Assembly (NCBI GenBank): GCA_965216875.1
Contig: OZ244207.1
Span: 608,001 to 672,000 of the forward strand
Origin: Rubripirellula sp.
GTDB lineage: Bacteria; Planctomycetota; Planctomycetia; Pirellulales; Pirellulaceae
Length of the DNA stretch: 64,000 nt
Direction: 5' to 3'
Below the pieces are notes generated by a model. The model saw only the letters and a list, made by a program, of their open reading frames with translations. It ran no database searches and was not told where the DNA came from. Position numbers and translations under genes: made by a program. This document shows, one piece after another, positions 12,740 through 48,250 of this stretch. Within the stretch, counting starts at the first letter, position 1. Each line of letters begins with the position of its first letter.

Positions 12740-15700
12740 ATGAACAAGCATGATCTTATGGAAGACGAGATCACTGGCTGGGCCAAGTTTTGGGCGACGT
12801 GCACGCGGCTTCTGACGACTTATCCCGATCGCCCAGCAACAATGAGTGGCGAATCTGAGGCGAAAAAGCTTGAAAGCAGGCTGAAAATGCTTGCCGAAGA
12901 AATGCTTCCACTGCTTTGTGAAAGCGAATACTGGCTTGCAGACGCATCGGTGGGCAAAGGGAACTGGGCGGCAGTTCCTTGGGTCGCGATCTTTGACTCT
13001 CGGGAGTCAAGCAGTGCTCAGAAGGGGGTCTATCCTGTAATACATTTTTCTCCTGAAGAGCCGGTTGGAATTCGAATCGGACTTGGAGTTGCCGCCACCG
13101 AGTTTAAGTCACAGGCGAATGAGAAGGCCGCAGAAGTTCATTCGGAGCTTTCAACCGAAGAACGCCAAGAACTAGAGAGCGCTGGCTTCCTGGATGTTGT
13201 CGATGGTGACGGTGTTCGAGTGGAGATGGGGACCGGCAACCTCGCGAAAAAATACGCCCGTGGAATGATACTCGAGCGTTTCGTTCCGTTTGATGAGCTA
13301 AAGGCGACACCGAGAGAGTTGACGTCCTCGCTGCAATCGCTGGTTGAGATTTACAAGGCTTGGACGGATCGAAAGCAGGATCGCTCGGGCCACTCTGCCC
13401 ACGCGTCGTTCCTAAATTTGATGCGGACCTACGCCGCAGAAAAGGTTGTATTTCTTAGCCCGAAACGCGATGCCCGGTATTACGTCAGTGATGTCAACGA
13501 CAAAGGTTGCTCTGTTGAGCGACTTGACTCAGACAAGGCTGAGCGTGTTACGGAGTCTGGCTATCAGAGTAGACGCAACTGGCTGCGGGAACAGGGTGGA
13601 GCGGCAGAGCGCGAAAAGCTTGACAATACTGTCGCGCGACACATGTGCTATCTGCAGTCCGCCGACATGTGCCTCGAATCGGACCGGCATACAGCACGGT
13701 ACTTGCCCGATCACCAGGTGGCCTGTGAACAGTTTATCTCGCATGTCATCGAGATCAGTTCTCCCACGCGATATAAGCCAGTCATACTCTCATTGGTGAT
13801 TGAAGCAGTTCGCGACGGCGATCTAACCGAGAATCGGATTACGTTCGACTGGCTACTCCCGCGGTTTATCGACCGACTTGCCAGGTTTGAACAAGAAGTC
13901 GGTGAGCAACAGCTTGCAGAGGGTTTCGCCCGAATGGCATCGACGTCTGGAGCGTTTTGGCTTCTCGCCTACGACGATCCTCATCATCAACTTTCCGAAA
14001 AGCCCGATGCCAGCCAGATTAAGCGCAGGATCTCCCATGCTCGACTCCATGAAGCGTTCTGGAACGCTATTCAGCAACCGTCTCTTCAGCAACACATACT
14101 TGACGCGATCGGCCAGAAGTGGTGGCCAGATATGACAAACATTGAGCCGAACAACATATGGCTTGTGCCAGCCTCGGATAGCGCATCACGAATTAATGCT
14201 GATCGCACCCTCGCCACGAAGATCGATAAGAACATCCCTGAGAGGTGTGGGTTATCCAGCGACGGAAATCGTTACGCCTGGGGTACACAAGAGCACAATC
14301 GCTCTGACTGGCAAAGAATGCTTCCTGGTGATTTGTGCCTGATGTACACCCAATCCCATGAAAAGCCGAGCAAAGGCTACTACTACGCCGGCCGCGTTTC
14401 AGCCACGTACGATTCGGCCGAAGTTGCAACGGAACTTTGGAATGATGAAGCATTTCGATTGCTTTTCTTTTTCGACGAGATTCACGAAGTCGATTTTTCG
14501 GTTGAAGAAGTTACCGATGCGTTAAACGAATTTGCGGACTATCAACCCAAAGCTCCATTGGGATTTCGGCGTGTTCGTGAAGATGTCGCGAATGCACTTG
14601 CCGAGAAATATGGTTCCATTTGGAAATGGTTTCAACAAAAACTTCTGCGTATCGAAGGAGGCACGATGGAGCTTTCGAAATGCGTTGGCGAATTAATAGA
14701 GGGCATCGCCGCAGAGGGTTTTGTCTTTCATCCCTGGCAGATTGCAACCTTCGTGACCGCATTGAGAACGAAGCCCTTCGTAATCCTGGCGGGTGTGTCG
14801 GGAACGGGAAAATCGAAACTGCCTGCACTAGTCGCGAAGCTGACGACGGGCAAGATCGAGCGAGTGTCAGTGCGCCCCGATTGGACTGACAGCGCTGACG
14901 TGTTGGGTTACGTCGATTTGCAAGATCAGTTTCGCCCCGGAGTTGTGCTTCAGGCGGCTCAGGCGGCTTCGAAGGATGGTGAGCATTACCATCTCTGTTT
15001 GTTGGACGAAATGAATCTCGCGCGTGTTGAACACTACTTTGCTGAAGTGCTCAGTGCGATCGAAGATCGCCATCCATCTGCCGACGGAGGATACGAAACG
15101 ACAAAATTGGTAGCCCAAGCTCTGCCAGCCGGTTTTGAACAATGGCAAGAACAGACGATACCCGCCAATTTCGGCATCGTGGGAACGGTCAATATGGACG
15201 AGAGCTCGCACGGTTTTAGCCGCAAGGTGCTTGATCGAGCGTTTACCCTCGAGCTCTCGGAAGTTGATTTGGATCTCGGGCAGTCAAGACCGTCCGAGGA
15301 CGTCGAGCCAGCTCAATGGTTGCCGTCATTTTGGCATTGTCGTGCCACTCGTATTTCCGAGTGCGATCCTGATGATCCCAAGTTTCGGTCGGCCGCCAAG
15401 AAAGCGACCGAAGCGCTTCAGCGAGTTAACGAGTGCTTGATGCATAGTCAGTTGCAAGTCGGTTACCGAACACGTGACGAGGTGATTCTGTTTCTTTTGA
15501 ATGCCGACGAACTGAGCGATTTGTTCATCACACGAGATCGCAAAACGGTCGATCCGTTGGACCTGGCATTGATGATGAAGGTGCTGCCGAGGCTGGTGGG
15601 TGGTAGCAATGCAATTCGGCGGACCATGACCGGGCTGCTGGGACTTTCGCACGGGCAATCAATGAGTGAGCCCGATGATGCCGAGACTTTGGTCGAAAAT

Positions 15701-15820
15701 TGGGTTTCCGCTGGGCGACCGGACACCGTTGATGGGGTAACTTATCCGCGAACTGCATCACGGCTGTGTTTGATGTGGGAGCGTTTGACTTACGAAGGCT
15801 ACACGTCATTCTGGTTGTAG
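12740..15820 (+). CDS. mcrB: McrB-family AAA+ GTPase with several N-terminal DNA-reader domains
   Basis: GVSGTGKS, LLDEMN, GTVNMDE; N-terminal DUF3578-like SVGKGNWAAVPWVAIFD. Confidence 0.88.
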   Translation: MNKHDLMEDEITGWAKFWATCTRLLTTYPDRPATMSGESEAKKLESRLKMLAEEMLPLLCESEYWLADASVGKGNWAAVPWVAIFDSRESSSAQKGVYPVIHFSPEEPVGIRIGLGVAATEFKSQANEKAAEVHSELSTEERQELESAGFLDVVDGDGVRVEMGTGNLAKKYARGMILERFVPFDELKATPRELTSSLQSLVEIYKAWTDRKQDRSGHSAHASFLNLMRTYAAEKVVFLSPKRDARYYVSDVNDKGCSVERLDSDKAERVTESGYQSRRNWLREQGGAAEREKLDNTVARHMCYLQSADMCLESDRHTARYLPDHQVACEQFISHVIEISSPTRYKPVILSLVIEAVRDGDLTENRITFDWLLPRFIDRLARFEQEVGEQQLAEGFARMASTSGAFWLLAYDDPHHQLSEKPDASQIKRRISHARLHEAFWNAIQQPSLQQHILDAIGQKWWPDMTNIEPNNIWLVPASDSASRINADRTLATKIDKNIPERCGLSSDGNRYAWGTQEHNRSDWQRMLPGDLCLMYTQSHEKPSKGYYYAGRVSATYDSAEVATELWNDEAFRLLFFFDEIHEVDFSVEEVTDALNEFADYQPKAPLGFRRVREDVANALAEKYGSIWKWFQQKLLRIEGGTMELSKCVGELIEGIAAEGFVFHPWQIATFVTALRTKPFVILAGVSGTGKSKLPALVAKLTTGKIERVSVRPDWTDSADVLGYVDLQDQFRPGVVLQAAQAASKDGEHYHLCLLDEMNLARVEHYFAEVLSAIEDRHPSADGGYETTKLVAQALPAGFEQWQEQTIPANFGIVGTVNMDESSHGFSRKVLDRAFTLELSEVDLDLGQSRPSEDVEPAQWLPSFWHCRATRISECDPDDPKFRSAAKKATEALQRVNECLMHSQLQVGYRTRDEVILFLLNADELSDLFITRDRKTVDPLDLALMMKVLPRLVGGSNAIRRTMTGLLGLSHGQSMSEPDDAETLVENWVSAGRPDTVDGVTYPRTASRLCLMWERLTYEGYTSFWL

Positions 15821-15822
15821 CC

Positions 15823-18309
15823 ATGAAGCATCTTTTCCGTATCGCAACCAATCGATTCACGCTGGACTGGCACCGCGTCCGCGAGACCGACCCCGCGGTT
15901 TTGGCTCAAGCGATGCCCGTGATGGGATTGTTGAGAATGGTGCCGCACGATAGCGGACTCCAGTGGCGGGATTTGATGATGCGCAGCGGTGTGCCTGACG
16001 CAACTGCCGGAGACGCCAGCGATCCGAGTGGGCCACCGTTATACGAGCAGACGGAATACCAACTTTACCTCCGAGGCGCAAACGATGGCGACACGGTGGA
16101 AATGCGGCATCGCGATCCCGTCATCACTCGCTCGCTCAACTCGCAGGAGAACGGGCGAGTCGTCCATGGATCGGTGAACTTTCGCGGCCAGATCGGTCGA
16201 AGTTTGTTCTCGGTCTATGTCAATGGAAAGCGGACGTTGGACTTCGAGGTCGAAGTTTTTCCAACAAAAATTGACTATGCTTCGGATTACCAAGACATCG
16301 TCGCCGACGTGCAGTCAATTCTGATAAATCTGGCGTACGAATACTTGCGATCGACATACCAGATGGGCAAGCTTTCCGGTGATCGCCCACCGTCGAAGCT
16401 GGAATGGCTTGTTTTGATCGAGCAGATCATCGACGAACTCGATACCGCGATGAATCATATCGCACAGCAACCGACACGAGCGCTGATCCGACGGGAGCGA
16501 ACGACGCGGCTGGAACGCATACGGCGTGTCGATTCACGGGTGCGTTCGCAGGTGCGACGCGGTCAGGGCAAGGGCTCGTTTATTCAACTAGGTGGGTTTT
16601 CTGCTCGGCAGCAAATAACGCAACGTCCGGCAGAATTGACCTTGGACACGATGGAGCATCGTTGGCTTCGAAACCAGCTTGTAGCCGTTCAACGGTCGCT
16701 AGGACAAATCGCCGCGATCTACGATTCTGAACTTGAGTTGTCTTCGCGGCGCAAGCGTACATTCGCAGGAATCGCTCGATTGGAAACACGCGTGTCGCGG
16801 CTGTTAAGTTTGGAGCCGATGAAAGAGGCCGACGGTGATCCTCCGGTCGGATTCGCGTCACTACAGCTGGTGTCGGCCCCCGGTTATCGCGAGGCCTATC
16901 GGCTACTGATGTTCCTGAAGATGGGGCTACGGTTGGAGGGTGATCTTGTTAGGCTCTCACTCAAGGACTTGGAGGTGCTGTACGAATATTGGACCTACTT
17001 GACCGTCGTTCGCATCATCCAGGATGAACATGGATCACCCGAAAATCTTGACTCTCTGTTCCGACTGCGATCATCTGGCCTGTCTGTCCTGTTGAAACAG
17101 GGGAAAACACAACAGGTTGCCTTCAAGGCAGGACACCACCGAACCATTCGAGTCAAGTATAACCCTAAGTTTGCGAACCAAGAGACGACCTTAATTCCGC
17201 AGAAGCCCGATATCTTGATTCGCTTTGAAGAGGACGGCTGGCCCTTGATTCAACTGGTAGCGGACGCCAAATACCGACTCGACGCGACGGATCAGTACCG
17301 CCAACAATTCAAATCGTTCGGTCCGCCAACAGACGCGATCAATGTCCTACATCGGTACCGCGACGCAATTTTGGAATTTGACCGCAGCGAATCACAGTCA
17401 GCTGGCTTAAAACGCTCGGTCGTACAAGCTGCCGCACTGTTCCCGATGAACCAATTAGCCGGAGACGACTTCCGCGATAGTCGGCTTTGGCAATCCTTAG
17501 AGCGGCTTGGCGTTGGTGCTATTCCTGTGTTGCCGACCAACCAAGCACTCCTAAAAGAGTGGCTGATGTCGTCGCTAAGGCAGGGCGGATGGTCGATGGC
17601 GGATAGAGCTATTGCCAATTTGGTGGACGAGCGGGCCAGGGATTGGCGTATCGCAGCGAGTGAGCCGGTCCTGGTTGGAACATTGAGGTCGCCTGGGGGA
17701 CGCGAGCATTTGGATTGGGTGCGCAGCGAACGCCGCTACTACCATCCATTCGCCAAAAAACAGCGACGCCAATACACGGTCAAGCAAGTAGCGATCTACA
17801 TTCCCACCGGATTTGAAGTGCCAAACGGAATCCGCTATGTCGCAGATGTGAAACATCTTGAAATTATTGATCGTTCCGAGATTCCGACACCATGGACGGC
17901 AAGACGCAACGAGAAGATGGTGCTGTATCATTTGGGGCCAGTTCACGAGCTGGCGCATGCTGTCGATTTCACGGTAGGCGATTCGATGCCGCCACGAGGA
18001 CGTTGGACGACGCGTCTGGGCCTGGAGCGAGCTCGGACGGTAAGCGAGATTGCTCTGGAGACAGAACCCGAATGGCGTCTTCGGGAATGGCTTCAAGCAA
18101 ACCGATTCAATCACTCCATCAAACTTGATCCACCGAAAGTACTAAGTTCCGAAAACCCGAAAGGTCGTGCGTGGTTTTGTTTCGACTCAGGGAATCGGTT
18201 GAGATTTGACGGCGCGAATCGCTTTCTAAGTCGCTCCGCAGATGGAATTGATCGCTATTACAAACTAGAAGAGCTACTTAAGCACGACCTTAATTCAGCC
18301 GGTCCGTGA
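15823..18309 (+). CDS. McrC-like DUF2357 / PD-(D/E)XK nuclease
   Basis: LYEYW, QKPD..DAKYR, INVLHRYRDAI; 2 nt after mcrB. Confidence 0.85.
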   Translation: MKHLFRIATNRFTLDWHRVRETDPAVLAQAMPVMGLLRMVPHDSGLQWRDLMMRSGVPDATAGDASDPSGPPLYEQTEYQLYLRGANDGDTVEMRHRDPVITRSLNSQENGRVVHGSVNFRGQIGRSLFSVYVNGKRTLDFEVEVFPTKIDYASDYQDIVADVQSILINLAYEYLRSTYQMGKLSGDRPPSKLEWLVLIEQIIDELDTAMNHIAQQPTRALIRRERTTRLERIRRVDSRVRSQVRRGQGKGSFIQLGGFSARQQITQRPAELTLDTMEHRWLRNQLVAVQRSLGQIAAIYDSELELSSRRKRTFAGIARLETRVSRLLSLEPMKEADGDPPVGFASLQLVSAPGYREAYRLLMFLKMGLRLEGDLVRLSLKDLEVLYEYWTYLTVVRIIQDEHGSPENLDSLFRLRSSGLSVLLKQGKTQQVAFKAGHHRTIRVKYNPKFANQETTLIPQKPDILIRFEEDGWPLIQLVADAKYRLDATDQYRQQFKSFGPPTDAINVLHRYRDAILEFDRSESQSAGLKRSVVQAAALFPMNQLAGDDFRDSRLWQSLERLGVGAIPVLPTNQALLKEWLMSSLRQGGWSMADRAIANLVDERARDWRIAASEPVLVGTLRSPGGREHLDWVRSERRYYHPFAKKQRRQYTVKQVAIYIPTGFEVPNGIRYVADVKHLEIIDRSEIPTPWTARRNEKMVLYHLGPVHELAHAVDFTVGDSMPPRGRWTTRLGLERARTVSEIALETEPEWRLREWLQANRFNHSIKLDPPKVLSSENPKGRAWFCFDSGNRLRFDGANRFLSRSADGIDRYYKLEELLKHDLNSAGP

Positions 18310-18471: not shown

Positions 18472-18795
18472 CTACAGTTCGTCTGCTTCGACCTCGCGGA
18501 CGAAGCGGTTGGTGTCGGACTCTAGGAAGCTGCTGACGACGTTGAACACGGCGTCGCTGAAGCCTCCGATGTTCAGGATGTCCTGGCGATCGGGGCTTGC
18601 GTGTTGCCGTATGGGGCGATGTCGATGCAGACCAACTTCGGATCAGCGATGCCGTGTCCGCGCTGAGTCTTCTTGAACTTGTCCCACTCGGTCATGACGC
18701 CAGTTGAACCGCCTCGGCCGAACCCGTAAGCACGTCCCGAGTTGATCCTGCTTTCGTTGTCGCTGACCAGGACGAGTTCCGCAAACGCACGCGAA
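18472..18795 (-). pseudogene. C-terminal vWA fragment of a Ro60/TROVE RNA-binding protein, with two frameshifts and the 5' part deleted
   Basis: Hand translation: [22 protein letters not shown] / [17 protein letters not shown] / [23 protein letters not shown]. Confidence 0.8.
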
Positions 18796-18799
18796 TGTC

Positions 18800-18895
18800 A
18801 CAGGGTCCGGCCCCGTATCTAGGTTTCCTGAGAAGGGGGCCGGCCGGGAGTCGAACCTGGTTAGCCATGTACTCCACTCCGGCAGTCGAATGTGT
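18800..18895 (-). ncRNA. Y-RNA-like module D, with T-arm and acceptor-like stem; 3' end apparently lost
   Basis: Shared motif TCGACTGC-N6-GGAGTACATG; CCAGG-TTCGACT-CCCGG; CCGGCCCC/GGGGCCGG stem. Confidence 0.6.
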
Positions 18896-18928: not shown

Positions 18929-19074
18929 CGCGATCGACGAAGGTATGACCAGAGACTTTACGGTGCTCTGCCACTGAGCTACGGCCCGGCTATGGAAAGC
19001 AGTTGGGCCGGTGGGACTCGAACCCACGACACCCGGCTCCTGAAGCATGTACTCCGAATCGGCAGTCGATCGTG
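18929..19074 (-). ncRNA. YrlA-like Y RNA (module C) with a circularly permuted tRNA domain
   Basis: Terminal stem CGATCGAC/GTCGATCG plus U-run; T-arm GTGGGTTCGAGTCCCAC precedes a loop-closed acceptor stem and D-arm TAGCTCAGTGGCAGAGC; next to the Ro60 remnant. Confidence 0.8.
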
Positions 19075-19082
19075 TGCGATTG

Positions 19083-19448
19083 TTATTTTCGTTTCTTCTT
19101 CAAAGTCTTCCGCAACCGTTTCCACACCACGTGACCACTTTCCGGGTCAAGCCGGACGAGTTGGTTCTGGCGAGTGTCGAAGGTTTTGGTGCCGCCTTTC
19201 GGTCGCTTGGTGTAAACGAACGGCAGGCATACGGCGACGACTTTGAAAGGTTGACCCGCGTCACTGGGCATGTAACGGATCCGAACCGGCTCGTCCGCTG
19301 GAAGTGTGCTGCCAGAGCAGCTCCAGAGGAACGAAGGCAATTCGACGATCTCGTTCAAGACCGTGACGTAGTCTCCTTGTTTGATGTCTTCTCCGGCGAC
19401 TCGTGCTGCCACGGTCGTCTGGTAGTTGGTTTCAGTTGTAGTTTCCAT
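19083..19448 (-). CDS. Hypothetical protein with basic C-terminus inside the Y-RNA cluster
   Basis: 121-aa ORF co-oriented with the operon. Confidence 0.7.
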   Translation of the reverse strand: METTTETNYQTTVAARVAGEDIKQGDYVTVLNEIVELPSFLWSCSGSTLPADEPVRIRYMPSDAGQPFKVVAVCLPFVYTKRPKGGTKTFDTRQNQLVRLDPESGHVVWKRLRKTLKKKRK

Positions 19449-19606: not shown

Positions 19607-19689
19607 AGAAGTTTGAAGTGGGAAGTTCGAAATTTGAAACGGACTGCCATCCCTTTCTTCACACTTCACCATTCACTTTTGGAACTTCT
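19607..19689. repeat. Heptamer-periodic imperfect inverted repeat (GAAGT type)
   Basis: GAAGTTT GAAGTGG GAAGTTC GAAATTT ... CTTCACA CTTCACC ATTCACT. Confidence 0.6.
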
Positions 19690-19708: not shown

Positions 19709-19929
19709 AAAGCCCGACGAAGTGGTCGTCGAGATCGCTGTTCACTGCCATCACTCGCGTGAGTGGAAGCAAACGCCGCTCTTACCGATCGCTTTCACGA
19801 TTGGCAGTGGGCACACACGATTGCATCTACGAGAGATGGAAACCGTGCTCACTACCTTCGGTTGCCCGAAGGATCGCTACCTTAGGACCGTCATAGTTAC
19901 GATGTAATCCCAACAGGCAGTCGAGCTTT
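19709..19929 (-). ncRNA. Y-RNA-like module B carrying a 23S rRNA H69-H71 sequence and multiple hairpins
   Basis: Terminal stem AAAGCTCGAC/GTCGGGCTTT, shared 5' motif, then CGTAACTATGACGGTCCTAAGGTAGCGA; GCAA and GAAA tetraloop hairpins. Confidence 0.7.
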
Positions 19930-19941
19930 GTGCTGGTTTGC

Positions 19942-20014
19942 GACGGATCGACGAGGTAACAGCTCAGATGGGACACATTTTCAAGATGTAATCCGAGCCT
20001 GCAGTCGATTCGTC
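19942..20014 (-). ncRNA. Minimal Y-RNA-like module A
   Basis: GACGAATCGAC/GTCGATCCGTC stem, shared motif TCGACTGC-N6-GGATTACATC, GCTCGGAT/ATCTGAGC stem. Confidence 0.65.
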
Positions 20015-20016
20015 AG

Positions 20017-20087
20017 AAACGCTGGTGGGAGTCGAACCCACTTAGACCGGGTTGCAGCCGGTTGCCTGGCCATCTGGCTCCAGCGTG
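20017..20087 (-). tRNA. tRNA-Cys(GCA)
   Basis: Anticodon arm ACCGG-CTGCAAC-CCGGT. Confidence 0.85.
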
Positions 20088-20095
20088 TTCTCAAG

Positions 20096-20167
20096 CGTCC
20101 TCGCCAGGAATCGAACCTGGTCTTCGACCTTCGCAGAGTCGCGTGCTGTCCGGCACACTCCGAGAAC
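20096..20167 (-). tRNA. tRNA-Arg(GCG)
   Basis: CGACT-CTGCGAA-GGTCG. Confidence 0.8.
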
Positions 20168-20192
20168 ATGGATGGCTAATCAAAGAGCCGAG

Positions 20193-20264
20193 TAACCCGC
20201 CCAGGAATCGAACCTGGTCCGACAGTTTCGAAGACTGTCATGCTATCCAGCACACCCGCGAGTC
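20193..20264 (-). tRNA. tRNA-Arg(TCG)
   Basis: ACAGT-CTTCGAA-ACTGT. Confidence 0.85.
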
Positions 20265-20289
20265 ATGTTGATTGTTAGTTAGTCACAAG

Positions 20290-20363
20290 AGCCGACGACT
20301 GGGTTTGCACCAGCATGAGCCGCTTTACAAAAGCGGTGCCTTTCTGCATCGAGCCACGTCGGC
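20290..20363 (-). tRNA. tRNA-Thr(TGT), atypical T-loop
   Basis: CCGCT-TTTGTAA-AGCGG; T-loop TGCAAAC. Confidence 0.7.
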
Positions 20364-20380
20364 ATGGGTTGCTGCATCAG

Positions 20381-20452
20381 TAGCCCGACCAGGAATCGAA
20401 TCCGGAACTTCTGGTTAGAAGCCAGAGATGATGTCCGTTTCACCATCGAGCC
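20381..20452 (-). tRNA. tRNA-Arg(TCT)
   Basis: TCTGG-CTTCTAA-CCAGA. Confidence 0.8.
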
Positions 20453-20465
20453 GTTTGCAAGCAAG

Positions 20466-20551
20466 CGGAAGGCGAGGGAGTCGAACCCTCATCACCCGAA
20501 GGTGGCACGCGTTAGCAGTGCGGCCCGGCAAACCGTATCCGGCTGCCTTCC
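20466..20551 (-). tRNA. tRNA-Ser(GCT)
   Basis: Loop CTGCTAA, long variable arm, G73. Confidence 0.8.
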
Positions 20552-20563
20552 GAAATCGTTGAG

Positions 20564-20636
20564 TGGACCGGAAGGGAATCGAACCCTTCTCACCGATCTT
20601 GCAAGGATCAGTCGCCCCCTTGGAACATGCCAGCCC
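20564..20636 (-). tRNA. tRNA-Ala(TGC)
   Basis: TGATC-CTTGCAA-GATCG; G3:U70. Confidence 0.85.
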
Positions 20637-20647
20637 ATTTCACTCAG

Positions 20648-20718
20648 AGGTCCGTCCGGGAATTGAACCCGGTCTTCGTCCATACCACAGACGCGTGCTG
20701 CCGCAACACTTACAGACC
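20648..20718 (-). tRNA. tRNA-Thr(GGT)
   Basis: CGTCT-GTGGTAT-GGACG. Confidence 0.8.
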
Positions 20719-20729
20719 ATTCGTTTCAG

Positions 20730-20802
20730 TGATCGCGGATGGAATCGAACCATCGATCTCCTGCATGTCACGCAGGCGTCTTCGCCGCTGGACCACGCGA
20801 CC
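20730..20802 (-). tRNA. tRNA-Val(GAC)
   Basis: CCTGC-GTGACAT-GCAGG. Confidence 0.85.
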
Positions 20803-20816
20803 GTAGTCTTGATGAG

Positions 20817-20892
20817 TAGTCGAGATAGGAGTCGAACCTACAAAATCACAAGCCTCTCGTGCTTGCCGCTATGCCTGTTTGCGTACTCGACC
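20817..20892 (-). tRNA. tRNA-Leu(GAG), short variable region, C33
   Basis: CAAGC-ACGAGAG-GCTTG. Confidence 0.7.
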
Positions 20893-20899
20893 GAGAAAG

Positions 20900-20968
20900 T
20901 AGCGGATCCGGGGGTCGCACCCGACGGTCCTGGCTTATGAGGCATGGCTGAGCACTGGCCCATCCGCG
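20900..20968 (-). tRNA. tRNA(CAT), initiator-like or degenerate
   Basis: Loop CTCATAA; unpaired 1:72; shortened D-arm; weak anticodon stem. Confidence 0.55.
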
Positions 20969-20972
20969 TTGT

Positions 20973-21415
20973 GTTAGCTTGTTAGCAATTAGCCTGTTAG
21001 CGACTAGCTTTCTATTTCTATTGGGGCACACTCATGCGAGATCACAAAAATCTTCGAGCGTTCGAACTGGCCGACGAAGTTGCTTTGCTCACTTACAAGT
21101 TCACGCGGAGTTTTCCGCGTGAAGAACAATTCGGGTTGACATCCCAAATGCGTCGAGCTGCCGTATCAGTTCCATCGAATATCGTCGAAGGCTGTGGTCG
21201 TCACACGGAAGCGGAGTTCCTCCGATTTCTCGACGTTGCATACGGTTCACTCAGGGAACTTGAGTACCAAACCTCGCTTGCAGTTCGCTTGGAATTCGTC
21301 TCGAACCACGGGGATTTCACTGCCAAGCTAACTGAAGCCTCCAAAGTCCTAGGCTCACTGATCCGCTCCATCCGAAAAAGCTAATTGCTAACTCGCTAGC
21401 TGCTAATCGGCTAGC
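20973..21415. mobile_element. Four-helix-bundle cassette bounded by GTTAGC/GCTAAC periodic inverted repeats
   Basis: Left arm 20973-21008, right arm 21380-21415; lies between two tRNA(CAT) genes. Confidence 0.6.
21034..21384 (+). CDS. Four helix bundle protein (23S rRNA IVS protein / Avd-like family)
   Basis: FPREEQFGLTSQMRRAAVSVPSNIVEG..FLDVAYGSLRELEYQ; antisense to the array. Confidence 0.93.
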   Translation: MRDHKNLRAFELADEVALLTYKFTRSFPREEQFGLTSQMRRAAVSVPSNIVEGCGRHTEAEFLRFLDVAYGSLRELEYQTSLAVRLEFVSNHGDFTAKLTEASKVLGSLIRSIRKS

Positions 21416-21419
21416 TCAG

Positions 21420-21489
21420 TTGCAGGTCTCGGTATCGAGCCGAGCACACCGACCTCATGAAAGTCAGTTGGACACCTGTCGCACCTGCA
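21420..21489 (-). tRNA. tRNA(CAT) Met/Ile2, shortened D-arm
   Basis: TGACT-TTCATGA-GGTCG. Confidence 0.6.
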
Positions 21490-21498
21490 ATGTTGAAG

Positions 21499-21582
21499 TA
21501 GCCAAGGCGAGGGTTGAACTCGCACGCCACGATGGGCACGACATTCTGAGTGTCGCGTGTCTACCGGTTCCACCACTTGGCT
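21499..21582 (-). tRNA. tRNA-Leu(CAG), long variable arm
   Basis: CGACA-CTCAGAA-TGTCG. Confidence 0.88.
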
Positions 21583-21597
21583 GTGTTTGAATCGAAG

Positions 21598-21671
21598 TAC
21601 TGCGGGAGGGAGTCGAACCCTCAAACACGATCGTTTGAAATTCGCCGCTTTGCCGGTTTGCGTACCACAGC
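21598..21671 (-). tRNA. tRNA-Leu(CAA), short variable region
   Basis: Loop TTCAAAC; imperfect anticodon stem. Confidence 0.7.
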
Positions 21672-21683
21672 ATGTTGATTGAG

Positions 21684-21755
21684 TACTGAGGGCGGGAGTC
21701 GAACCCGCAAGCACTTGTTCCTAAGACAAGCGGCTCGCCGTTGGCCTACCTCAGC
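21684..21755 (-). tRNA. tRNA-Leu(TAG), short variable region
   Basis: CTTGT-CTTAGGA-ACAAG. Confidence 0.8.
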
Positions 21756-21767
21756 GTTTGCGAAAAG

Positions 21768-21838
21768 TGGAGCACCGGGGAATCGAACCCCGATTTTCTA
21801 CGTGCAAAACAGACGTCTTCCCGTTGGACGAGCGCCCC
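21768..21838 (-). tRNA. tRNA-Ala(TGC), second copy
   Basis: Loop TTTGCAC; G3:U70. Confidence 0.8.
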
Positions 21839-21864
21839 ATATCGTTTCGTTAACGTTGCAAAAG

Positions 21865-21938
21865 TGCCCAGAGCAGGAATCGAACCTGCAAACATCCGGG
21901 TTTAAGCCGGACCGCTCTGCCGATTGGCGTATCTAGGC
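21865..21938 (-). tRNA. tRNA-Leu(TAA), short variable region
   Basis: TCCGG-CTTAAAC-CCGGA. Confidence 0.8.
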
Positions 21939-22002
21939 GTCGTGTGTTGGCCGCCGTGGGAAGAACGCGATTGCTCACGCCCTTCCTTTGGCTGCCAACG
22001 TG

Positions 22003-22262
22003 TTATGCTCGGAGTCGCGGCGTGCTGTCGCCCGTTGACTTGCGGTGGTTTCGGATTGCCTTGCGGTAGTTCGGAACACTGTCGCCTTCGACGATCACGT
22101 CGCCGACCGTTTCGACAACCCAGCCATCGACCCAGCGGTCGTCGCTATCTTTCAGCTTCAGTATTTCGCGAATTGCGTCGGGATATACGAAGTTGTGACG
22201 ACGCTAGCACCAGCGACGATGCGTCTCATCGCACATTGCGCGTACTTCACGTTTCTGGTCAT
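22003..22262 (-). pseudogene. Frameshifted small hypothetical gene inside the array
   Basis: AAGGAG RBS; MTRNVKYAQCAMRR..TTSYIPTQFAK / LKLKDSDDRWVDGWVVETVG..RKAIRNHRKSTGDS. Confidence 0.6.
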
Positions 22263-22314
22263 CGTCGTCTCCTTGTCAGTTGGTAAGAATAATCATTGTT
22301 TGCGAAGGTCGAAG

Positions 22315-22386
22315 TAGTCCAGGATGGAATCGAACCATCTTTTCCTGTTTGTAAGACAGGCGTCGTAGCCGTTGGACCACAGGACT
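22315..22386 (-). tRNA. tRNA-Val(TAC)
   Basis: CCTGT-CTTACAA-ACAGG. Confidence 0.85.
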
Positions 22387-22410
22387 TTTTCAAAATGTCG
22401 ATCCGGAGAG

Positions 22411-22481
22411 CACGTCCCCAAGGATTTGAAACCTGACTAACTGGTTTGGAATCAGCAGTGCTACCGTTACACCAGAGACGT
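22411..22481 (-). tRNA. tRNA-Trp(CCA)
   Basis: Loop TTCCAAA; imperfect T-stem. Confidence 0.75.
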
Positions 22482-22498
22482 GGATGTGTTTTCAAAAG

Positions 22499-22583
22499 TG
22501 GGAACGCAAGGAATCGCACCTCTCGCCGGCTACCACACAATTAGAGGCAGAAGGGTTACAACCTCCCGTGTGGAAACGCTCCC
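22499..22583 (-). tRNA. tRNA-Tyr(GTA)-like, lacking a D-arm, with enlarged variable region
   Basis: GGGAGCG/CGTTCCC acceptor; GGAGG-TTGTAAC-CCTTC. Confidence 0.6.
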
Positions 22584-22601
22584 ATGTATCAATCGAACAA
22601 G

Positions 22602-22685
22602 CGGAAGCCGTGGGACTCGAACCCACAACGGTGATTAGCCGCAGCTGTTTTCAAGACAGTGTCCTCATCCGGCCGGGTGACTTCC
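22602..22685 (-). tRNA. tRNA-Ser(TGA)
   Basis: Loop CTTGAAA, long variable arm. Confidence 0.8.
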
Positions 22686-22706
22686 GTAGTGCGTCATCAA
22701 ACGCAG

Positions 22707-22781
22707 TGACGTGAGCGGGAAACGAACCCGCGGACTCCTGGATGAAAACCAGGCAATTCTGCCATCAGAATCTACCACGCC
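22707..22781 (-). tRNA. tRNA-Glu(TTC)
   Basis: CCTGG-TTTTCAT-CCAGG. Confidence 0.75.
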
Positions 22782-22806
22782 GTTTGGTTGCTTCGATCGA
22801 AGCGAG

Positions 22807-22878
22807 TACCGCATAGGAGTTTCGATCTCCTTCCTGCTGCCTGAGAAGCAGCCGACCTAGCCAGTAGTCGAATGCGGC
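22807..22878 (-). tRNA. tRNA-Glu(CTC)
   Basis: GCTGC-TTCTCAG-GCAGC; T-loop ATCGAAA. Confidence 0.75.
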
Positions 22879-22892
22879 TTGTTTGCAAAAAG

Positions 22893-22965
22893 CGATGGCA
22901 ACGGGAGTCGAACCCGCAGCGACTTGATAGACAATCAAGCTTCCTTCCGAGAGGAACTTGCCACC
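22893..22965 (-). tRNA. tRNA-Asp(GTC)
   Basis: CTTGA-TTGTCTA-TCAAG. Confidence 0.75.
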
Positions 22966-22980
22966 GAAAATGTTCGCGAG

Positions 22981-23056
22981 GGTGACTAACCGGAATTGAA
23001 CCGGCGACAAACTCATTCACAGTGAGTCTCTGGAAACCAACACCAGATCTAGCCAC
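22981..23056 (-). tRNA. tRNA-His(GTG)
   Basis: ACTCA-CTGTGAA-TGAGT; C73. Confidence 0.78.
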
Positions 23057-23058
23057 AG

Positions 23059-23129
23059 TCGGGTATCAGTGAGTCGCACACTGTCCATGCGTGGTCCCAA
23101 ACCACACCGCTTACTCCAAGCTATACCCG
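23059..23129 (-). tRNA. tRNA-Pro(TGG)
   Basis: Loop TTTGGGA; C1-G72, A73; T-loop TGCGACT. Confidence 0.7.
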
Positions 23130-23141
23130 AAACAAAAATAG

Positions 23142-23216
23142 CACCGGAGACTGGAATCGAACCAATGGACTCCTCGTTCAGAGCGAGGTGCAGCGACCAG
23201 CAACTGCTACTCCGGC
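23142..23216 (-). tRNA. tRNA-Gln(CTG)
   Basis: CCTCG-CTCTGAA-CGAGG. Confidence 0.8.
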
Positions 23217-23238
23217 GTTTTAATCAAATCGTCAATAG

Positions 23239-23306
23239 CACTCCGTCCGGGAATTGAACCCGATCTGCGGGCTTCAAAGGCCCACGTCGCGACTACGCGC
23301 CGGAGA
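23239..23306 (-). tRNA. tRNA-Gln(TTG), shortened D-arm
   Basis: TGGGC-CTTTGAA-GCCCG. Confidence 0.65.
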
Positions 23307-23324
23307 GAGTTTTCCCGATGAAAG

Positions 23325-23396
23325 AGTGTCCTGCGGGAGTCGAACCCGCCTATCTGAGTTGGAAGCCCAGCACCTTTGCCGCTCGGCCAAGGACAC
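23325..23396 (-). tRNA. tRNA-Gly(TCC)
   Basis: CTGGG-CTTCCAA-CTCAG. Confidence 0.85.
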
Positions 23397-23403
23397 GATG
23401 GAT

Positions 23404-23478
23404 GCGGAAGTTTGAAGGGCGAGGTGTGAAACGAAGCGAGCTATTCCACACTTCTGGCTTCACCCTTCAAACTTCGCG
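23404..23478. repeat. Heptamer-periodic inverted repeat spacer (GAAG type)
   Basis: GAAGTTTGAAGGG ... CCCTTCAAACTTC. Confidence 0.6.
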
Positions 23479-23481
23479 AAG

Positions 23482-23553
23482 CTCCGGCGGAAGGACTCGA
23501 ACCTTCACTCGTCTCCTTAACAGGGAGCCGCCTTACCATTGGGCCACACCGGA
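23482..23553 (-). tRNA. tRNA-Asn(GTT)
   Basis: CTCC-CTGTTAA-GGAG. Confidence 0.85.
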
Positions 23554-23569
23554 TTGTTAACTCATCAAG

Positions 23570-23643
23570 TCAGGATGGCTGGATTTGAACCAGCGATCTC
23601 GTGTTTCCGGAACACGCGGAGTGCCAGACTTTCCCACATCCTG
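23570..23643 (-). tRNA. tRNA-Pro(CGG)
   Basis: CGTGT-TCCGGAA-ACACG. Confidence 0.8.
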
Positions 23644-23651
23644 ATTTGCAA

Positions 23652-23722
23652 AGCGCCCAGTGGGAGTCGAACCCACACTTCCGCCATGGCAAGGCAGTAG
23701 GCTGCCACTACATCATGGGCGC
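23652..23722 (-). tRNA. tRNA-Gly(GCC)
   Basis: CTGCC-TTGCCAT-GGCGG. Confidence 0.82.
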
Positions 23723-23757
23723 AGATTTGCATCACAACCAAATTGTCAAAGATCGGA

Positions 23758-23830
23758 TCAGGCTTCAGGTGCCAGGCTTTAGACGTCAGGTTGTATTCCT
23801 GAAGTCTGACTCCTGATTGCTGAAGTCTGC
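23758..23830. repeat. Heptamer-periodic inverted repeat spacer (TCAGG type)
   Basis: TCAGGCT TCAGGTG CCAGGCT TTAGACG TCAGG ... CCTGAAG TCTGACT CCTGA. Confidence 0.6.
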
Positions 23831-23835
23831 TTTAG

Positions 23836-23906
23836 AGCACCGAGCCGGAATTGAACCCGCATCACCTCGTTACGACGGAGGTATCTTGCCGTTAGAAGAT
23901 CAGTGC
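23836..23906 (-). tRNA. tRNA-Thr(CGT)
   Basis: Loop GTCGTAA; one stem mismatch. Confidence 0.7.
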
Positions 23907-23913
23907 TGGAGTA

Positions 23914-23995
23914 GCGGATTAGCCTTTAGCTGTTTAGCTGATTAGGTTTCTTCTTTGTCTTTCCTAATCAGCTAACTCGCTAACAGCTAACCTGC
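23914..23995. repeat. Heptamer-periodic inverted repeat spacer (TTAGC type)
   Basis: TTAGC repeated ... GCTAAC repeated; same unit as the four-helix-bundle flanks. Confidence 0.65.
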
Positions 23996-24002
23996 TCTTT
24001 AG

Positions 24003-24075
24003 TGGGACCGGTGAGAATCGAACTCACATCGTTCGGTTTAAGAGACCGATGCATTACCTTGTCTGCCACAATCCC
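24003..24075 (-). tRNA. tRNA-Lys(CTT)
   Basis: TCGGT-CTCTTAA-ACCGA. Confidence 0.87.
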
Positions 24076-24095
24076 ATGTGTTTTGTCTTGTCCGG

Positions 24096-24168
24096 TCGGC
24101 GCGGAAGGAATCGAACCTTCAACCCTCGTCTTATGAGGACGCCGCCCTTACCACTGAGCTGCACGCCG
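24096..24168 (-). tRNA. tRNA(CAT) Met or Ile2
   Basis: CGTC-CTCATAA-GACG; canonical D and T arms. Confidence 0.85.
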
Positions 24169-24195
24169 GAGGCGCCAATGGCGCGGCGCCGTAAG

Positions 24196-24268
24196 TGGGG
24201 CCGGAGAGATTCGAACTCTCGCCGAACGGCTTAAAAGACCGTCATGCTGCCTGTTACACCACAACCCC
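24196..24268 (-). tRNA. tRNA-Lys(TTT)
   Basis: ACGGT-CTTTTAA-GCCGT. Confidence 0.87.
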
Positions 24269-24332
24269 ATGATTGGTCGGGCGTAGGCGTTTCAATCGCA
24301 ATGCAAGAAGCATGTCGGTTTCTCTTTCGTGT

Positions 24333-24391
24333 TATCGAACTCAGCGCGACCCGCGTATCAGGCGGATTTGGGCGACCAGCCCTCGACTACC
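24333..24391 (-). pseudogene. 3'-truncated tRNA-Ile(GAT)
   Basis: TCCGC-CTGATAC-GCGGG; breaks after GTTCGAT, with no 3' T-stem or acceptor strand. Confidence 0.7.
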
Positions 24392-24408
24392 GTGTTGTTG
24401 TAAAAAAG

Positions 24409-24509
24409 TCGGACACCTCGGAGTCGAACCGCCCGTCGCGGAGCGACCCACAAATGAACGCAGTCTCCTGCTCCCAAAGCAGGCGTGCTTCCATCTGCAC
24501 CTGTATCCG
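24409..24509 (-). tRNA. tRNA-Pro(TGG) with an insertion of about 30 nt in the T-stem
   Basis: CCTGC-TTTGGGA-GCAGG; removing 24432-24461 restores CTCGG-TTCGACT-CCGAG. Confidence 0.65.
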
Positions 24510-24566
24510 ATGTTGTTTGTGGTGTTCGCTGCAGCCGATTCCGTCGGCGCATATCTTCTTTGTCAG

Positions 24567-24638
24567 TGGGCCGGGAGGCGCTCGAATCCTCGTCTGCGGT
24601 GCTTCAAACCGCCGCTAGACCGTCTCAGCTACCAGCCC
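24567..24638 (-). tRNA. tRNA-Phe(GAA)
   Basis: GCGGT-TTGAAGC-ACCGC. Confidence 0.78.
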
Positions 24639-24640
24639 GC

Positions 24641-24740
24641 GTTAGCTTGTTAGCAGTTAGCTTGTTAGCGGTTAGCTTGTTAGCGGTTAGCCAGAAAGTG
24701 CTTTCCTAACTCGTTAATCGGCTAATGGCTAATCAGCTAA
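24641..24740. repeat. GTTAGC periodic inverted repeat
   Basis: Seven GTTAGC units, then five CTAA-type units. Confidence 0.75.
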
Positions 24741-46810: not shown

Positions 46811-47050
46811 ATGATCTCACTCGATACTGATGGACTTGCCGACCTAATCGCTGATCGTGTAGCGGAACGACTCGCACCGGAACCCGTGTTCCTGAGTGCG
46901 GACCAACTAGCGACACGAGTCGGTCTCGGTGTGGCAACTGTGCGGAAGTTGTCACGTCGAGGTGACATTCCGACAATCATGATTGGACGTAGAAGACTCT
47001 TTGATTTGCAACGTGTAAGGGAGGCATTGGCTGATGGGCTTACGACTTGA
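46811..47050 (+). CDS. Excisionase-like HTH protein
   Basis: LSADQLATRVGLGVATVRK..IP..IGRRRLF; overlaps the integrase start. Confidence 0.78.
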   Translation: MISLDTDGLADLIADRVAERLAPEPVFLSADQLATRVGLGVATVRKLSRRGDIPTIMIGRRRLFDLQRVREALADGLTT

Positions 47051-48239
47051 GAAATACAAGGGACGATCTGGTTACCGATACCAATTCACGGTCGGCGGTG
47101 TGCGGCGCTCGCTTTGGTTGGGCAAGGTGCCACGTCGAACAGCCGAAGAGATTGCCCGCAACGTCGACCGCCTCGCACTTGCTTGCGAGACGCAGACACA
47201 ACCACCTGTAGACGTTCAGCAGTGGGCGGTGAAAGTGTCCGGTAGACTTCGAGAAACGCTAGAGAAGTGGCAACTGATCGAGCCGTCGGTCGTATCGGCT
47301 CGTACACTAGCCGACTTCGCGTCAGCGTATATTGCCACGAAAACGGACGTGAAGGAGGCAACTCGCGAGAAGTACGGTCATACCAAGCGGATGTTGGTTA
47401 ACCACTTCGGACCGGATCGCACCATCGCGTCGATCACCAAGGCAGATTGTCAGCTGTGGTACCGATCGATGCTCCAGACGCACGCGGAGACCACGGCGGG
47501 CAAGCACGTGACCAGGGCACGCACCATCTTCCGATTTGCGGTCGATGGCAACATGATCTCCAGCAATCCATTGGATGGAATCAAGGTCAGCGACCAGATT
47601 GACCGCGACCGCGAGCACTACGTCACCCGAGACGATGCCGCCCGTATCCTCGAACACTGTGATCCCGAGCAAGGCGTCGCCTTTGCACTCGCTCGATTCG
47701 CCGGTCTCAGACCGTGTGAGTTGCTTAGGCTCACCTGGAGCGATATTCGCGAGGATCGGATTCGCGTTGATTCAGTCAAGACAGGTCTGCGTTGGATGAG
47801 ACTGGAACCGGACGTACGGAAGCAACTCGATCGGCTTCCTCTGCGTGAGGGTCGAATCCTCCGGCGTTGGTCGCCCGATGCGAATCTTGCAACCAATCTC
47901 AAGCGAGTCATCGAGCGAGCAAATGTGAAGCCATGGCCGAAGATGTTCGTCAACTGCCGAGCGTCGTGCAGGGGTGACTTGGAAGACCGGTTCCCTTCAT
48001 GGGTCTGCGACCTGCTGATGGGTCATTCGCAAGAGGTTGCGGACAAGCACTATCGCCGACTGCACGATGAGTATTTCGTGGTGCAACAGCCGGTGCGTCG
48101 TGCACCACTACCTAGTGATACTGAGGGATCGTGGTGCGAAGACCAGCCCGCAAATAGCGGTGCGGGCCTTGTTTCAGCTCCCCCGACAGGACTCGAACCT
48201 GTGACAAGGCGGTTAACAGCCGCCTGCTCTACCAACTGA
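47034..48239 (+). CDS. Tyrosine recombinase / integrase
   Basis: AGLRPCE, KTG, NCRAS, MGHS..HY; adjacent to tRNA-Asn. Confidence 0.92.
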   Translation: MGLRLEKYKGRSGYRYQFTVGGVRRSLWLGKVPRRTAEEIARNVDRLALACETQTQPPVDVQQWAVKVSGRLRETLEKWQLIEPSVVSARTLADFASAYIATKTDVKEATREKYGHTKRMLVNHFGPDRTIASITKADCQLWYRSMLQTHAETTAGKHVTRARTIFRFAVDGNMISSNPLDGIKVSDQIDRDREHYVTRDDAARILEHCDPEQGVAFALARFAGLRPCELLRLTWSDIREDRIRVDSVKTGLRWMRLEPDVRKQLDRLPLREGRILRRWSPDANLATNLKRVIERANVKPWPKMFVNCRASCRGDLEDRFPSWVCDLLMGHSQEVADKHYRRLHDEYFVVQQPVRRAPLPSDTEGSWCEDQPANSGAGLVSAPPTGLEPVTRRLTAACSTN

Positions 48240-48250
48240 GCTACAGGGGA
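48178..48250 (-). tRNA. tRNA-Asn(GTT), canonical; integration target
   Basis: TCCCCTGTAGCTCAGTTGGTAGAGC..GCGG-CTGTTAA-CCGC..GGTTCGAGTCC. Confidence 0.96.

Follow-up and report, generated by a model that had tools for sequence, protein, structure and literature searches.

A predicted Y-RNA-like element with an internal 23S rRNA look-alike in Rubripirellula and other Planctomycetota

The 23S rRNA-like stretch of module B

The window analysed here is a stretch of 64,000 nucleotides (nt) from Rubripirellula sp. (assembly GCA_965216875.1, contig OZ244207.1, positions 608,001 to 672,000), which lies within one 8.26-Mb contig of a genome that is 99% complete. Our subject is module B, a predicted noncoding RNA of 220 nt on the minus strand (19710..19929) that is assigned to the B2 type of Y-RNA-like elements by a family alignment (A4) and its consensus structure. 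An initial annotation, made from the sequence of the window, had described it as a Y-RNA-like RNA displaying 23S rRNA helices 69 to 71. Read along the minus strand, the locus consists of 31 tRNA genes, module A, module B, an open reading frame (ORF) of 121 amino acids (aa), module C, module D and a remnant of rsr, the gene for Ro60. One 33-nt motif (repeat family D11), hereafter the scaffold motif, opens all four modules. Genomes and loci used for comparison are designated by G and L numbers, respectively.

The minus strand of positions 19874..19901 carries an rRNA-like 28-mer, which is unique in the window at up to three mismatches and was matched by none of 100 shuffles. Aligned to the 23S rRNA of E. 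coli K-12 (rrlH; numbering throughout takes position 60 of locus L148 as nt 1, another E. coli record having been set aside for indels in its 23S), it equals C1909-A1936 at 27 of 28 positions, the sole difference being a G where E. coli has A1918. The initial annotation had given the same letters and the same alignment, and had placed the start of the 28-mer where the shared scaffold motif stops; we also find that it directly abuts D11. It had further proposed a comparison with the host 23S. The host has a sole 23S gene (L002), which agrees with the 28-mer at 26/28 positions, and both differences belong to one flipped closing pair, C-G in the host 23S and G-C in module B. The nine-base loop of the host 23S is the same as that of module B, G1918 included. 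Among genomes of the same family and order, there are many whose 23S genes equal the 28-mer at all 28 positions.

Throughout, helices 69 and 70 (H69, H70) are assigned to 23S positions by what we take to be their boundaries. No rRNA was found by Rfam anywhere in the window, which gave 25 tRNA matches instead, and neither flank of the 28-mer resembles 23S above chance, in agreement with the earlier remark that no rRNA flanks it. When the parts of the modules 3' of A1936 were aligned locally to 23S, they scored like shuffles (z from -1.0 to 2.5; p>0.05 in 23/24 sequences), and the longest exact words common to the modules and the host 23S (from nt ~447) or 5S were at chance level in 8/8 modules tested of the 39 aligned. 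A mimicry reaching H70/H71 (helix 71) or other 23S segments was thus rejected, with z ~0 in local alignment and exact words at chance. Likewise, the GNRA hairpin of the module, which by eye looks like a shortened H71, was rejected as such by alignment versus shuffles (z ~0). Since no resemblance to 23S extends beyond the stretch, the 'H71' of the initial description is unsupported.

These results bear on the possibility that the stretch derives from a fragment of an rRNA pseudogene, from a chimeric assembly, or from an ectopic target of an intron or homing endonuclease in DNA. This 23S region is presumably a known hotspot for introns and homing endonucleases, and the initial annotation had pointed to the I-CeuI site; that remark concerns DNA and finds no support here. 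No intron or endonuclease gene is present at the site. The rRNA likeness expected to run from a 23S fragment into its flanks is missing. A chimera, an objection that had been raised at the outset, is excluded because contigs from independent genomes and metagenomes contain the same junction between the Y scaffold and the rRNA-like stretch. Furthermore, the conserved RNA structure described below spans the junction. With these points against it, we regard such an origin as scarcely credible.

Predicted fold

Module B belongs to a family with two forms, B1 and B2, the latter being that of the window, and structural alignments were made of 24 B1-type sequences (A2) and of 15 B2 sequences (A4). 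RNAalifold on the 24 B1-type sequences paired the 5' scaffold with the 3' end (P1, CCCAAC/GUUGGG; P2, GCUGGGAG/CUCUUGGC). In the A2 fold, 94.5% of cells are paired and 22/38 pairs show compensatory change, a value reached by 0/500 shuffles, and slid controls are 30-47% paired. The A4 fold gave 95.4% of cells paired and compensatory change in 21/48 pairs, again with 0/500 shuffles as high. Compensatory pairs make up 4/7 of P1 in A2 and 5/7 in A4; P2 is 97% paired in A4 (helix 2) and has 6/8 compensatory pairs in A2. The long stem expected of a Y RNA, formed by pairing of its 5' and 3' ends, is therefore present, with P1 and P2 covarying in both subfamilies.

In the window, where all these elements lie on the minus strand, the 5' strand of P1 (GCUCGAC, 19920..19926) pairs with its 3' strand (GUCGGGC, 19712..19718), which is preceded by a conserved CUUCG and whose motif also closes modules A and C. 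The 5' strand of P2 (GUUGGGAU, 19907..19914), located within the scaffold motif, pairs with AUCUCGAC (19728..19735) in the A4 consensus structure. An H69-like hairpin occupies 19888..19902 (helix 3 of A4), with a stem of 19899-19902 and 19888-19891 and a loop of 19892-19898. Its four pairs are 96.7% paired, and the closing G-C has become C-G in three related sequences, probably by one event. A seven-pair hairpin with a GCAA tetraloop (19855..19872, helix 4 of A4) has compensatory changes in 4/5 pairs, and its equivalent in B1, helix 3 of A2, is likewise supported. P1, P2 and the H69-like and GNRA hairpins are all intact in the window copy, which has in common with the G151 copy an extra hairpin of ~40 nt, and module B does not look decayed. 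Compared with H69 and the strand 1925-1936 of 23S, B2 has the sequence of 1909-1936, the same nine-base loop and a closing pair that covaries; it differs in that the outer half of its stem is made of scaffold bases and that the H70 partner strand and H71 have no counterpart.

Module B contains no recognizable tRNA-like domain: searches of the tRNA, YrlA and tmRNA type gave no match at E<=10, nor any at E<=1 in six related loci. The T arm, D arm and acceptor-like stem that characterize the YrlA subfamily are absent. As regards a Ro60-binding helix sequence, the 33-nt motif on the 5' side and CUUCGUCG on the 3' side recur in modules scoring as YrlA or YrlB, those scores being below the Rfam gathering scores.

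An alternative pairing of the scaffold underlies a different explanation, according to which the stretch is a Ro60 recognition element and the Y RNA a pseudo-substrate or gate, Ro60 reading the same sequence in misfolded or immature 23S; the Y RNA would then occupy or regulate the substrate site of Ro60, with no third party recruited. The scaffold 5' strand is 83% paired with the stretch over 24 sequences, as compared to 29-51% for a slid partner, and the same pairing appears in the single-sequence minimum-energy fold. GGUCC is also present in the 5' strand of the Ro60-binding helix of metazoans. In addition, Chen et al. 2014 describe that Rsr matures 23S during heat stress, an activity inhibited by bound Y RNA (PMC4201824). 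Nevertheless, the pairing of scaffold and stretch shows no covariation beyond chance, 407/500 shuffles being as high. At three positions, base changes on the 5' side disrupt pairs in 4-6 of 24 sequences. The scaffold covaries with the 3' end, and in B2 the module's own hairpin takes up part of the stretch. The pairing of scaffold and stretch was consequently rejected as the family fold, although it is possible as an alternative conformer, and we consider the pseudo-substrate explanation unlikely.

Two complementarities may be recorded in their own right. The scaffold 5' strand (19907-19926) is complementary to the 3' end of the module and also to the rRNA-like stretch (19874-19889). The P2 3' strand and 23S 1923-1932 are alike. 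In principle, 23S itself might pair with the scaffold, which all Y modules have in common.

The B1 and B2 forms in Planctomycetota

Searching the region against 60 relatives by blastn gave two kinds of match, namely 23S genes and non-rRNA loci in which the likeness reaches past the 28-mer. An exact 20-mer across the junction of Y scaffold and stretch was present in 25 records of 185,579 species genomes, of which 24 are labelled Planctomycetota or subgroups thereof and one 'bacterium', and 2.9 million viral contigs held no match. Among the carriers of a B1 copy is Aeoliella straminimaris ICT_H6.2 (L055). In the B1 form, the scaffold is followed by CAUGACGGUCCUAAGGUAGCGA, which equals 23S 1916-1936 and lacks the seven bases CGUAACU that extend the window's match to 28. 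The B2 form has 23S 1909-1936 and adds the H69-like hairpin with the loop UAACUAUGA. Because B1 has no H69 loop, the rRNA-like element shared by the two forms is the strand 1916-1936, which a model with a single partner would have to accommodate. Of the 'helix 69-71' initially proposed, the H69-like hairpin with its conserved loop therefore holds for B2, whereas the loop is absent from B1 and nothing past A1936 rises above chance in either.

Because the 20-mer set had been found via the stretch itself, a covariance model (R1) was derived solely from sequence lying 3' of the stretch in B1 relatives, the window being excluded. R1 matched the window at 19711-19871 (25 bits, E 1.3e-6), so that the homology of the window's module is independent of the rRNA-like segment. 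Over the family, the model found 30 places in 25/151 genomes: 27 modules (23 B1 and four B2), the latter half of one copy that has an insertion, and two places of doubtful status (G019:C413, G160). The rRNA-like stretch is retained in 26/27 of these modules, although it played no part in finding them; its loss from homologous modules was what the initial annotation had named as fatal to its own claim. Among the 23 B1 copies, 15 carry the exact 21-mer, seven (G028, G140, G006, G020, G091, G167 and G002) have one to three differences, all within 1920-1926, and one (the first copy of G061) is truncated at its 5' end. The four matches of the longer B2 form are in G128, G088, G102 and G151.

A search pattern in which the scaffold and CCUAAGGUA were fixed and the loop region was free identified B2 in 15 metagenome contigs. 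The loop UAACUAUGA occurs in 14/17 distinct B2 copies, the exceptions being L091, L094 and L141. In L140, a B2 module is followed by a B1 module in tandem, and thus the two forms are paralogous module types. A looser 18-mer pattern with three mismatches, applied to 401 genomes of the order, was discarded as noise, its match frequency being that of a reversed control. Judged by their sequences, the B modules are an RNA family absent from Rfam and seen so far only in Planctomycetota.

Some copies depart from the common form. One B1 copy (L044, = G018:C316; L024) has an insertion of ~110 nt in the loop of the GUCUC/GAGAC hairpin, the module being otherwise intact. G061:C1 contains three distant B1 copies (L072, L097 and L101), one without scaffold and most of the stretch and one without a nearby rsr. 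B1-like copies in L085 (G116:C5) and L099 (G079:C48) keep the 21-mer in a different 5' context, with no ACUGCC scaffold motif.

Relation to the 23S rRNA of the host

The closing pair of H69 that differs between module B and its host also differs among the 23S genes of relatives. The flipped pair C1910-G1920 is found in the 23S of G000, G088, G091, G102, G167 and G020, and G1910-C1920 in that of G006, G030, G036, G058, G061, G079, G111 and G116. Although B1 lacks the 5' strand of H69, its position 1920 equals that of the host 23S in 11/11 genomes where both are known. Eight genomes have C in both (G030, G036, G058, G006, G061, G111, G079 and G116) and three have G in both (G091, G167 and G020); the 23S was not found for 11 more genomes (G002, G018, G028, G062, G069, G078, G128, G140, G144, G151 and G169). 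The G/G cases represent two module lineages, GAGGAGCC (G091 and G167; also G002, whose 23S was not found) and GAGGGGCC (G020). The sister B1 copies of G006 and G020 differ exactly at position 1920, with C in G006, where the 23S also has C, and G in G020. As for B2, the copy of G088 has the flipped C-G pair, matching its 23S.

That position 1920 follows the host 23S would also be expected if the stretch were a neutral product of repeated rDNA gene conversion at a chance-similar patch of the Y RNA and did nothing in itself, and the window 28-mer is indeed letter-perfect to the 23S of relatives. However, in the GAGGAGCC lineage (G091, G167 and G002), which has G at 1920, positions 1922-1923, only two to three bases off, stay unlike rDNA. 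A conversion tract would reset them, and simple gene conversion is therefore disfavoured. Moreover, the host 23S cannot be the donor of the window copy, the stretch is kept across many genera while its flanks vary, and the B2 hairpin shows compensatory change. We hold a neutral origin by conversion to be very improbable. The rRNA-like stretch is under selection and appears partly to follow the 23S of its host.

Gene context in relatives

TROVE matches, weak but above cut-off, are contained in ORFs of 460-640 aa within ~2.5 kb of the modules in G030, G058, G033, G020, G018, G040, G036 and G019. In five of six 15-kb loci (G030, G091, G088, G020 and G036), an ORF with TROVE and vWA_Ro60 stands directly downstream of the last module on the same strand; the sixth, without a Ro60 ORF, is one of the three G061 copies. 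RtcB then follows rsr in G036. The other neighbours vary by locus and include a type I restriction subunit, helicases, transposases and T5orf172. tRNA genes occur in 16/23 loci scanned, and in 12/23 the B module is preceded at a short distance by a tRNA-Cys(GCA), the gap being wide enough for a YrlB-like module. The order of the window, that is tRNA-Cys, YrlB-like module, B module, is found in relatives as well. Y RNA genes are described as encoded within 4 kb of rsr in PMC4201824; rsr is likewise nearby in the relatives, and the window has a truncated remnant only. The Y-RNA-like character claimed by the initial annotation is thus borne out by the covarying end-to-end closing stem, by the scaffold motif common to neighbours scoring as YrlA or YrlB, and by the Ro60 genes downstream in relatives.

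This context also brings to mind a protective role, in which the module would be a decoy soaking up a nuclease aimed at rRNA, a modifying toxin, or an effector of a phage or defence system acting at H69/H70. It would then belong to a set of tRNA and rRNA decoys that are encoded together with the tRNA array. The modules adjoin large tRNA arrays, and restriction- or defence-type neighbours are frequent, with McrBC-like genes in the window and a type I restriction R subunit, helicases and T5orf172 in relatives. RtcB after rsr in G036 and the tracking of the host 23S, which is what a decoy would need, point in the same direction. On the other hand, no toxin gene is consistently linked, the neighbour genes change between loci, and no match was found among the viral contigs. 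We know of no toxin that cuts exactly at this H69/H70 stretch, and a decoy could work only if it were plentiful in comparison with ribosomes. Considering both sides, a decoy role seems to us distinctly unlikely.

Possible function

Module B resembles YrlA (RF02553), as the latter is described in PMC4201824, in being modular, in having a stem made of its 5' and 3' ends and in being encoded a few kb from rsr. In both, the internal domain would imitate an RNA of the translation apparatus, and YrlA-like copies share the arrays with B modules. Unlike YrlA, module B has no T or D arm and carries instead a 21-28-nt copy of 23S, and it is longer (165-220 nt). Planctomycetes with Ro and YrlA, e.g. Pirellula staleyi and Rhodopirellula baltica, appear in supplementary file 4 of the same work, in which the role of the tRNA-like domain is left unsettled (PMC4201824). 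With RNAs of the YrlB/Yrn2 type (RF02565), to which module A belongs, module B has in common the scaffold motif and the closing stem, but these are simple hairpins without an effector domain.

A functional model can be borrowed from the Yrn1-Rsr-PNPase particle of Deinococcus radiodurans, in which the Y RNA is reported to link Ro60 to a further component and to control access to the Ro60 cavity, and whose Rsr acts on 23S rRNA (PMC4201824). Module B has no sequence relation to Yrn1. The leaders of ribosomal-protein operons are likewise described as presenting a short rRNA look-alike outside the ribosome to something that normally binds rRNA. In contrast to these leaders, module B lies inside a Y scaffold with no ribosomal-protein gene downstream, being followed by other Y modules and rsr and, in the window, by the 121-aa ORF without a Pfam match. 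Over 21-28 nt it is identical to rRNA in sequence, not merely similar in structure.

Considering the covarying stem and the retained stretch, we think it fairly probable that module B is a Y-RNA-like noncoding RNA gene in which an internal 23S look-alike replaces the tRNA look-alike and in which Ro60 holds the stem. The P1/P2 stem is the predicted Ro60-binding module, and the internal domain a putative look-alike of the 50S interface element H69/H70. As in other bacterial Y RNAs, Ro60 would hold the closing stem, and the internal domain would imitate H69/H70 where YrlA imitates tRNA. Ro60, with a bound nuclease or repair enzyme, would then be brought to, or compete for, the readers of that rRNA element. 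H69 is contacted by the 30S decoding region, by H69-specific pseudouridine and methyl transferases, and by recycling, release and splitting factors. Candidate partners of module B would accordingly be the 30S decoding region, enzymes that specifically modify H69, and factors for recycling or splitting. Since the adjacent rsr is destroyed, any Ro60 partner in this genome would have to be distant, namely a divergent Ro60-like gene 0.7 Mb away.

Several observations weigh against this proposal. The window's rsr is a frameshifted and truncated remnant, located 0.9 kb downstream of module B, and a Pfam search for TROVE on the host genome gave no match. The sole candidate partner is a 534-aa ORF (G000:C1:1335376-1336980), whose vWA_Ro60 match in a protein search (21.7 bits) is below cut-off. 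Most family members are B1 and lack the H69 loop, and therefore 'H69 mimic' cannot be the function common to both forms. Rfam 15 gave no match to 19710-19929 at E<=10, nor to the B modules of six related loci. Folded as a single sequence, module B reaches its minimum energy (-86.6 kcal/mol) with the scaffold paired to the rRNA-like stretch, as against -81.8 kcal/mol for the family fold. Two of the three B2 copies with known host 23S (G000 and G102) do not follow the flipped pair of their host, and the G/G tracking of B1 amounts to two or three independent events in related genomes; given so few events, the tracking is a lead rather than proof. Finally, no RNA run of the organism was found to contain the stretch; four runs of the organism do hold it, but whether they are RNA or DNA is unrecorded, and one is possibly the source of the assembly.

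That the protein search found the 534-aa ORF despite the absence of a TROVE match suggests that a divergent Ro60 may be encoded in trans. Its locus (L071, G000:C1:1334338-1337904) contains two YrlA-like matches upstream, of 39.5 and 34.1 bits. With respect to expression, metatranscriptome contigs span the A and B modules of relatives (X1 record 7, corresponding to 19873-20061, and X2 record 15, corresponding to 19775-20041), which is a weak hint since DNA carry-over is possible. A promoter and terminator scan found no promoter-like sites, as compared to 3.5 expected, and no terminator after module B, the scan being uninformative for this phylum.

Extending the same line of thought, we put forward, only tentatively, that the Y RNA arrays of Planctomycetes jointly imitate translation RNAs, with tRNA-like modules and two rRNA-like modules, the latter co-evolving with the host 23S at position 1920. 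They would serve as baits by which Ro60, linked to RtcB in some genomes, finds or competes for H69/H70 partners, e.g. the decoding region in 30S subunits that are free or damaged. Mimicry of tRNA is established for bacterial Y RNAs, but what it is for has been an open question since 2014. A text search of the literature found no rRNA-like Y RNA, supplementary file 6 of Chen 2014 and bioRxiv supplements lying outside its reach. If the reading of module B is true, it would be the first rRNA-mimicking Y RNA and would give a handle on the role of bacterial Ro60 particles. A selected copy of a functional 23S centre in a Y RNA suggests that imitation of translation RNAs may be a general principle, and the apparent co-evolution of rRNA with a small RNA would be a rare case. 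The 21-28-nt bait comes with natural variants, B1 and B2 differing by the H69 loop and some copies following the flipped pair, and could thus be used for finding the partner of the Ro60 particle.

Other features of the window

The tRNA array (20016..24638, minus strand) comprises 31 genes, the last of which, tRNA-Cys(GCA), is directly upstream of module A. Module A (19942..20014, minus strand) is a YrlB-like hairpin Y RNA with an Rfam YrlB score of 30.5 bits (E 8.6e-4), under the gathering score; its homolog in L133 scores 36 bits. The 121-aa ORF between modules B and C (19083..19448, minus strand) has no Pfam match and is covered by metatranscriptome contigs of relatives at ~85-90% identity, and it may be a conserved small gene. 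Module C (18931..19075, minus strand) begins with the D11 motif and is YrlA-like with a tRNA-like domain, scoring 43.5 bits with Rfam YrlA (E 5e-8; gathering score 69).

Of module D, only the 5' part with the D11 motif is present (18798..18889, minus strand), and the sequence runs into the rsr frame. The intact homolog in G002 ends in CUUCGUCGAG, an end that is missing from the window's copy. The rsr remnant (18472..18797, minus strand) is the C-terminal part of Ro60, ~100 codons with a frameshift near 18615-18642, and is 54-55% identical to residues 480-581 of the G058 Ro60 ORF. Because module D passes without its 3' end straight into the rsr frame, one deletion seems to have taken both the end of module D and ~480 codons of rsr. 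Beside the remnant, two large ORFs (12740-18309, plus strand) carry MrcB_N with AAA_5 and DUF2357 with PD-(D/E)XK, which gives them the look of a McrBC-type restriction system.

A hairpin with arms of the GAAGUGUGAAG/CUUCAAACUUC type follows module B (19608-19670, minus strand) and recurs in the tRNA array at 23407-23475 (families D20 and I4). In L041, a hairpin of this type stands in place of the 3' half of a B1 copy. The hairpin could represent either a small repeat element or a terminator. The tRNA array also encloses a 116-aa ORF (21034-21384, plus strand) of the '23S rRNA intervening sequence protein' family (PF05635, E 8e-31) and two sub-threshold tRNA-Sec-like Rfam matches (20467-20551 and 22603-22685) that were not called by ARAGORN. 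Blocks of the array are flanked by GTTAGC-like 15-nt repeats and their inverted copies (D6, D13, I1 and I2) at 20973-21010, 23913-23996 and 24641-24738. Elsewhere in the window, a phage-type integrase ORF (47034-48250) ends beside a tRNA-Asn (48177-48250, minus strand), which may mark the integration site of a mobile element.

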